From the IMG/VR virus record IMGVR_UViG_2778261643_000011: a DNA stretch of 5,783 bases; one strand, given 5' to 3'. Positions 1,911 through 2,079 of this stretch are shown here, piece by piece (position 1 is the first letter of the stretch; every line of letters starts with the position of its first letter). This DNA is from a virus. Its lineage: Duplodnaviria; Heunggongvirae; Uroviricota; Caudoviricetes. The position numbers and the translations under genes are program-made. The notes beneath the pieces are model-generated. The model saw only the letters and a program-made list of their open reading frames with translations, had not been told where the DNA came from and did no database searches.

Positions 1911-2079
1911 ATCACCACCAATTGTTTGCTCTAAGTTTTGTTATTTTAACTTAGATTTATTGTGGCTTGAGTGCCATTGTTTTTGAGATTAATTGCTCTA
2001 ATAAATATTGTTTTTTATATCGTGTTTTCGGTACCATTCAGCCATCGCCCTTCAATGGGCATTAGTTAGGAGTCGTCAG
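1911..2079. promoter_or_regulatory. AT-rich divergent intergenic control region
   Basis: 169 bp of AT-rich DNA with no ORF, between the minus-strand start at 1910 and the plus-strand start at 2080. Contains an operator-like site at 1992-2008 and a candidate minus-strand -10 TAAAAT (plus coordinates 1943-1948) with no good -35, as expected for an activator-dependent promoter. Confidence 0.5.
1992..2008 (+). promoter_or_regulatory. P1 C1-repressor operator-like site (16/17 match)
   Basis: ATTGCTCTAATAAATAT matches the recalled asymmetric 17-bp P1 C1 operator consensus ATTGCTCTAATAAATTT at 16 of 17 positions. It overlaps a candidate -35 TTGCTC (1993-1998) and lies about 70 bp upstream of the first plus-strand start codon. 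Confidence 0.5.

Follow-up and report, generated by a model that had tools for sequence, protein, structure and literature searches.

A probable C1 repressor operator of the Op68/Odmt type ahead of the uhr-hrdC-dmt operon in a P1/P7-type plasmid-prophage fragment

The window, by which we mean the whole stretch of 5783 bp that was analyzed, is the entire draft contig NLWS01000137.1 (assembly GCA_002513315.1), which is broken at IS repeats. Between positions 60 and 5720 it shows 96-97% nucleotide identity to P1 and P7 (megablast), hundreds of P1-like plasmids from E. coli, Salmonella, and E. fergusonii match as well, and judged by this similarity it is a segment of a P1/P7-type plasmid prophage, in agreement with the initial annotation, which had anchored the element to the P1 family. 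Its closest relative, plasmid NZ_CP122822.1 (porcine ETEC1731, ~100 kb, P1-like), is 100% identical over 60-5720; this plasmid encodes a "phage repressor protein C1" of which 282 of 283 residues match P1 C1.100, and it carries a full set of high-scoring C1 operators. At the left margin an IS91-family element, whose terminus occupies positions 1-59, has cut upfA down to an ORF of 45 aa; at the right margin the final 63 bases (5721-5783) belong to the left end of IS2, which has inserted into the ban leader ahead of the tRNA genes. A tRNA scan of the window found none; P1 tRNAs would lie past the IS2 junction. None of c1, lxc, and coi occurs within the window; since it is an IS-bounded contig of 5.8 kb, c1 and lxc cannot be seen in it.

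From left to right, the window contains the truncated upfA' followed by mlp, ppfA, upfB, and upfC, all transcribed leftward, then uhr, hrdC, and dmt transcribed rightward, and finally the ban operator. The features that concern us are the following.

1626-1910, minus strand: upfC, coding for a PAAR-like small protein, the first leftward gene at the left edge of the intergenic region; orthologue of P1 upfC
1992-2008, plus strand: predicted C1 repressor operator, from identity, matrix score, and conservation; orthologous to Odmt (= Op68) of P1 and Op(dam) of P7
2008-2013, plus strand: -35 hexamer TTGTTT of promoter Pdmt, placed by alignment from the P1 annotation (65161-65166), its first base shared with the operator
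2032-2037, plus strand: -10 hexamer TACCAT of Pdmt, from the P1 annotation (65185-65190)
2080-2364, plus strand: uhr, 94 aa, which opens the operon; orthologous to P1 uhr and P7 upf64.0
2357-3262, plus strand: hrdC, RdgC family, 301 aa (Pfam RdgC PF04381, E = 1.2e-98); orthologue of P1/P7 hrdC
3259-5277, plus strand: dmt/dam, 672 aa, of P7-type length (Pfam PF00145 and PF02086); orthologous to the 2019-nt dam of P7 and to P1 dmt
5268-5284, plus strand: Op72a (Obana), a perfect consensus site overlapping the -35 of P1ban; P1 annotation 68667-68683, 26.4 bits
5279-5295, minus strand: Op72b (Obanb), ATTACACTAATAAATTT, inverted and sharing 6 bp with Op72a; P1 annotation 68678-68694 (minus strand), 21.6 bits
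5292-5297, plus strand: -10 hexamer TAATAT of P1ban, inside Op72b, from P1 annotation 68691-68696

The PAAR_motif match of UpfC reaches 26 bits, below the Pfam cut-off of 27, and agrees with the annotation 'UpfC (PAAR motif)' in RCS47; uhr matched no Pfam family. The three rightward genes overlap, uhr and hrdC by 8 nt and hrdC and dmt by 4 nt, and a scan with an intrinsic-terminator consensus found nothing terminator-like at either junction; on the plus strand the scan marked a single site in the operon, a weak stem of 6 pairs within dmt (3344-3362). The product of dmt has, according to Pfam, an N-terminal C5-cytosine methylase fused to a C-terminal D12 (Dam-type) N6-adenine methylase.

Two observations concern the variability of dmt itself. 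At ~4000-4160 (aa ~241-300) the center of the C5-methylase domain is wholly different between the allele shared by the window and P7 (672 aa) and that of P1 AF234172 (754 aa), with nearly identical flanks; this looks like a swapped target-recognition region, which would suggest a different cytosine specificity. In some relatives Dmt measures 1013 aa owing to an insertion of 341 aa between the residues GGTP and CQAF (702-3743, minus strand, in the locus of one relative). This insertion begins with Cys and ends in His-Asn, the next residue being the PCQ-motif Cys (in our reading the catalytic cysteine of the C5-methylase), and it gives Pfam matches to Hint and LAGLIDADG, features that identify it at the level of sequence as an intein-like element with a homing endonuclease. 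Dmt in the window is the empty allele, with the intein-free site at ~3487-3492 (Pro77-Cys78), and the ~1 kb of extra length in several of the matches noted above may be the same insertion.

At 1992-2008 on the plus strand the intergenic region reads ATTGCTCTAATAAATAT, a 17-mer that agrees with the P1 C1 operator consensus ATTGCTCTAATAAATTT at 16 of 17 positions, the mismatch being at position 16. With up to three mismatches allowed, the consensus occurs at three sites in the window, namely 1992-2008 (plus strand, one mismatch), 5268-5284 (plus strand, none), and 5279-5295 (minus strand, two). As a chance control the same search was run on 200 dinucleotide-preserving shuffles of the window, which held on average 0.01 matches and in no case three; with 0.01 expected and three observed, the site is real, far beyond chance, and the 16/17 match first reported for this position is borne out. 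The initial annotation had also proposed a weight-matrix scan with known operators, and this was carried out with the 20 monovalent C1 operators annotated in P1 AF234172 as the source set. A log-odds matrix was built from 17 of the 20, excluding the orthologous three (Odmt, Obana, and Obanb), and it gave 26.4 bits at 5268-5284, 24.8 bits at 1992-2008, and 21.6 bits at 5279-5295, against 9.5 bits for the best site in the window other than these. The accepted monovalent operators of P1 range from 15.3 to 26.4 bits, so that 1992-2008 falls inside their range, and the top scores of 200 first-order Markov random windows averaged 10.4 (sd 2.35) with a maximum of 18.5.

The 17-mer is identical to positions 65145-65161 of P1 AF234172, annotated as "monovalent C1-controlled operator Odmt; former Op68," and to Op(dam) of P7 AF503408, annotated as predicted to control the expression of upf64.0, hrdC, and dam. 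Its position is orthologous as well, as 1992-2008 lies between upfC and uhr, upstream of hrdC-dmt, and aligns to both Odmt and Op(dam). Operator and promoter abut: the -35 hexamer of Pdmt, annotated as a sigma 70 promoter, starts on the last base of the operator. A generic sigma-70 consensus scan did not recover Pdmt, whose -35 TTGTTT is weak (3/6 match), and the promoter is taken from the P1 annotation. The arrangement of an operator that ends at or in the -35 and is oriented with transcription is also found at the annotated Olpa, Oc4, Oc1e, and OpmgT. In P1 the consensus ATTGCTCTAATAAATTT describes ~22 dispersed asymmetric C1 operators per genome, through which C1 represses lytic genes, Lxc strengthens C1 binding, and Coi and Ant inactivate C1 (PMC8546580). 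Citron et al. (1989) is reported to show C1 binding at Op68 for P1, and P1 dmt is among the C1-repressor-controlled genes for which fold-induction was measured upon heat induction of a c1.100 lysogen (PMC4713147); these genes are not mentioned in the P1vir transcriptome paper. Taken together, we consider it highly probable (roughly 0.93) that 1992-2008 is the P1-family operator Op68/Odmt, through which C1 would silence the Pdmt promoter of uhr-hrdC-dmt. The proposal that the methyltransferase operon is under repressor control is supported in that the 17-mer equals the annotated Odmt/Op(dam), abuts Pdmt, and lies upstream of uhr-hrdC-dmt. The operator as such is already known: descriptions of it go back to 1989, and it is marked in the reference genomes of both P1 and P7.

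The conservation of the region points in the same direction. A total of 553 plasmid records contain the upfC-uhr intergenic region, for the most part with no more than 80-90% identity, and from across this range five plasmids were picked for an alignment with P1, P7, and the window, eight elements in all. None of the 17 columns of the operator is variable among the eight, against 21 of 30 in the segment directly upstream (1962-1991); 3 of 29 vary from the end of the operator through the -10 (2009-2037), where both the -35 and the -10 hexamers of Pdmt are invariant, and 3 of 42 in the leader (2038-2079). An invariant operator beside a hypervariable upstream segment is the pattern expected of a functional operator with its promoter, as read from the alignment.

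The hypervariable segment creates in this lineage a promoter-like TTGAGA-17-TATTGT (1983-2011) that overlaps the operator. We rejected it as a promoter, since it is lineage-specific, not conserved, and at chance level (0.5 expected in the region).

The distantly related phage D6 has no P1-type operator upstream of hrdC, the best site in its locus reaching 13 bits at the dam end, and its hrdC, separate dcm, and separate dam all lie downstream of tail genes. Because of this different gene setting and the lack of a P1-type operator at hrdC, D6 cannot serve as an independent check on the operator. Immediately before hrdC in D6 (~3436-3480 of the D6 locus), where a P1-type operator would be, there is a near-perfect long palindrome, CCATTTGTGTTAGA...TCTAACACAAATGG, which may be a terminator or a D6-specific operator.

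The second repressor-controlled unit lies at the end of dmt. The perfect consensus site reported earlier at 5268-5284 was confirmed with 0 mismatches and corresponds to Op72a of the ban operon, and together with Op72b it makes up the annotated bivalent ban operator over P1ban and P2ban: at 5268-5295 two inverted 17-mers overlap by 6 bp across the promoter, both arms identical to P1 Obana/Obanb. The statement that two repressor-controlled transcription units occur in under 6 kb therefore holds for Op68 and the ban operators, with the correction that the ban operator is bivalent and that its Op72b arm had been missed. The dmt stop codon TAA (5275-5277) is inside Op72a, and the final dmt codons overlap the -35 of P1ban; since the end of dmt overlaps Op72a/P1ban with no terminator between, transcription from Pdmt would run straight into the ban operator and promoter. 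Some 190 nt downstream of the ban promoter there is a strong intrinsic-terminator-like hairpin (5461-5488, 8 pairs then T8), within the counterpart (~5392-5493) of the annotated 'dicF-like region' of P1, and it could define a short C1-controlled RNA. An Rfam search of the window at E <= 1 gave no DicF match; its two matches were both sub-threshold, tmRNA_permuted (26 bits, gathering score 47) and U6.

These features can be placed in a scheme of repression drawn from P1. In a lysogen, where the element would be a plasmid prophage, one C1 monomer would bind the asymmetric 17-bp Op68, assisted by the co-repressor Lxc, and C1 protein is presumed to be present in this particular host. Bound to Op68, the 3′ end of which overlaps the first base of the -35, C1 would keep RNA polymerase off Pdmt, and the translationally coupled uhr-hrdC-dmt operon would stay silent. 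As the operator ends on the first -35 base and points with transcription, steric occlusion of the -35 and of the upstream RNA polymerase contact is the likely mode of repression, and from the geometry they have in common it is presumably the same at Op68, Olpa, Oc4, Oc1e, and OpmgT. Once C1 loses its activity, whether through Coi or Ant or, in c1.100 mutants, through heat, uhr-hrdC-dmt would be transcribed as an early lytic unit, supplying an RdgC-like protein and a Dam/Dcm-type methyltransferase. P1 packaging requires Dam-methylated GATC sites at pac, which offers a rationale for dmt being switched on early in lytic growth.

The initial annotation spoke of a divergent promoter region containing a further, weaker partial match. 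The region is indeed intergenic between leftward upfC and rightward uhr, but scans of the minus strand gave no promoter for leftward transcription, either sigma-70-like or Lpa-type, and none is annotated for upfC, which leaves the term half supported. For the late (Lpa-dependent) type, a matrix was made from 10 annotated P1 late promoters, the real ones scoring 18-21 bits; the best match in the window had 9.7 bits and none was intergenic, and the equivalent of the P7 'LPdam2' at 4247-4265 had only 8.7. Concerning the weaker match, the level of about 11/17 was correct and the position (1924-1937) was off by 2 bases: the string TTGCTCTAAGTTTT is at 1926-1939, and its 17-base register, 1925-1941, is TTTGCTCTAAGTTTTGT with 11/17 against the consensus. 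On the plus strand this register scores 8.3 bits, seventh in the window behind, among others, three sites in coding sequence, and ~1.8 such sites are expected per random window. The AA of its CTAAT core is GA or GG in 6 of 8 aligned elements, leaving a match of 9-10/17, and neither P1 AF234172 nor P7 AF503408 has an operator annotated there. With a noise-level score against at least 15.3 bits for accepted operators and a core that is not conserved, 1925-1941 was rejected as a C1 operator. Its part TTTGCTCT, 15-22 nt upstream of the upfC start codon, is invariant in the eight aligned elements and may be conserved for reasons other than C1 binding.

Three other readings were weighed against that of a C1-controlled Op68. 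The idea that C1 at Op68 also represses a leftward promoter of upfC-upfB-ppfA-mlp-upfA, possibly together with 1925-1941, which would make a truly divergent switch, appears improbable. It draws on the leftward genes beginning 82 bp from the operator and on upfC having no other annotated promoter, on the invariance among the eight elements of TTTGCTCT and of the minus-strand TAAAAT (from GTTATTTTAAC, 1941-1951), and on the known weak operators Oc1c and Orlf, in which a good left half is likewise paired with a poor right one. Against these points are the 8.3 bits of 1925-1941, below every accepted monovalent operator and at a level met ~1.8 times per random window, the GA or GG in place of its AA core in most aligned elements, the scans of the minus strand that gave no sigma-70-like or Lpa-type late promoter, and the P1/P7 annotation, which has the monovalent operator controlling dmt only. 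A lineage-specific version, marginally less probable still, follows from the AA core TTTGCTCTAAG being present in this lineage where most aligned elements have GA or GG, namely that 1925-1941 might be a weak auxiliary C1 site cooperating with Op68, for example through Lxc-stabilized looping over 67 bp, and extending control to the leftward upfC set; if true, the leftward gene set headed by the PAAR-like upfC would be under the repressor in a lineage-specific divergent switch.

It is similarly unlikely that Op68 persists here by descent alone, as an idle site in an IS-riddled, decayed P1-like hybrid plasmid that lacks a functional C1, with the methyltransferase operon expressed constitutively. 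P1 homology does stop at the IS91-family end in upfA and at the IS2 end in the ban leader, the window is a stand-alone contig of 5.8 kb, and IS91-family-mediated rearrangement of P1 backbones at upfA has been described for the porcine ETEC plasmid pSvP1 (PMC6906374), which keeps the orphan operator as a minor possibility. Yet contigs ending in IS elements are normal for short-read assembly and uninformative on the loss of c1, neither the operator nor the promoter nor any of the three ORFs is disrupted, and the 100%-identical closest relative, a P1-like plasmid of ~100 kb, has c1, lpa, and the other operators intact. As for a chance resemblance in AT-rich intergenic DNA with no regulatory role, the AT-richness of the region and nothing else speaks for it; the tests run refute it, since three matches were observed where shuffles gave 0.01, the 24.8 bits exceed the maximum of the 200 random windows, the site is orthologous to an annotated operator, and it is perfectly conserved beside a hypervariable stretch, so that its probability is negligible. 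Repression of uhr-hrdC-dmt by C1 at Op68 is thus the reading that we retain.

Compared with the known operator, Op68/Odmt in the window is unchanged in both sequence and context. P1 Odmt/Pdmt (AF234172 65145-65190) has the identical 17-mer, the same flanking genes (upfC on the left, uhr-hrdC-dmt on the right), and equal spacing to the -35 and -10, and the downstream leader of the window differs from it at 3 of ~70 positions, whereas over the 30 bp preceding the operator the window has diverged strongly from P1, and its dmt is the 672-aa P7-type allele instead of the 754-aa allele of P1. P7 Op(dam) (AF503408 67696-67712) shares the 17-mer, the operon, and the 2019-nt dam/dmt, and differs by point differences only, in the upstream spacer. 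Both arms of P1 Obanab (Op72a/b) are identical in the window, where the ban transcription unit, unlike that of P1, is interrupted by IS2 ~430 bp downstream of the operator; Op72a/b is a two-arm overlapping inverted operator, in contrast to Op68, which is a single asymmetric site. Olpa/Op94, Oc4/Op51, Oc1e/Op99e, and OpmgT/Op88 resemble Op68 in orientation and in operator-promoter geometry, but they control other genes and their sequences differ at 1-3 positions.

As the operator has long been known, the site carries little weight as a discovery, and its value is one of annotation, in that it confirms the contig as a P1/P7-type plasmid-prophage fragment. P1-like phage-plasmids often carry resistance genes in E. 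coli and Salmonella, and the site can be of use in annotating them from short IS-bounded contigs. For the biology of the element, it indicates that the Dam/Dcm-type methyltransferase operon would keep a lytic-phase, repressor-gated promoter.
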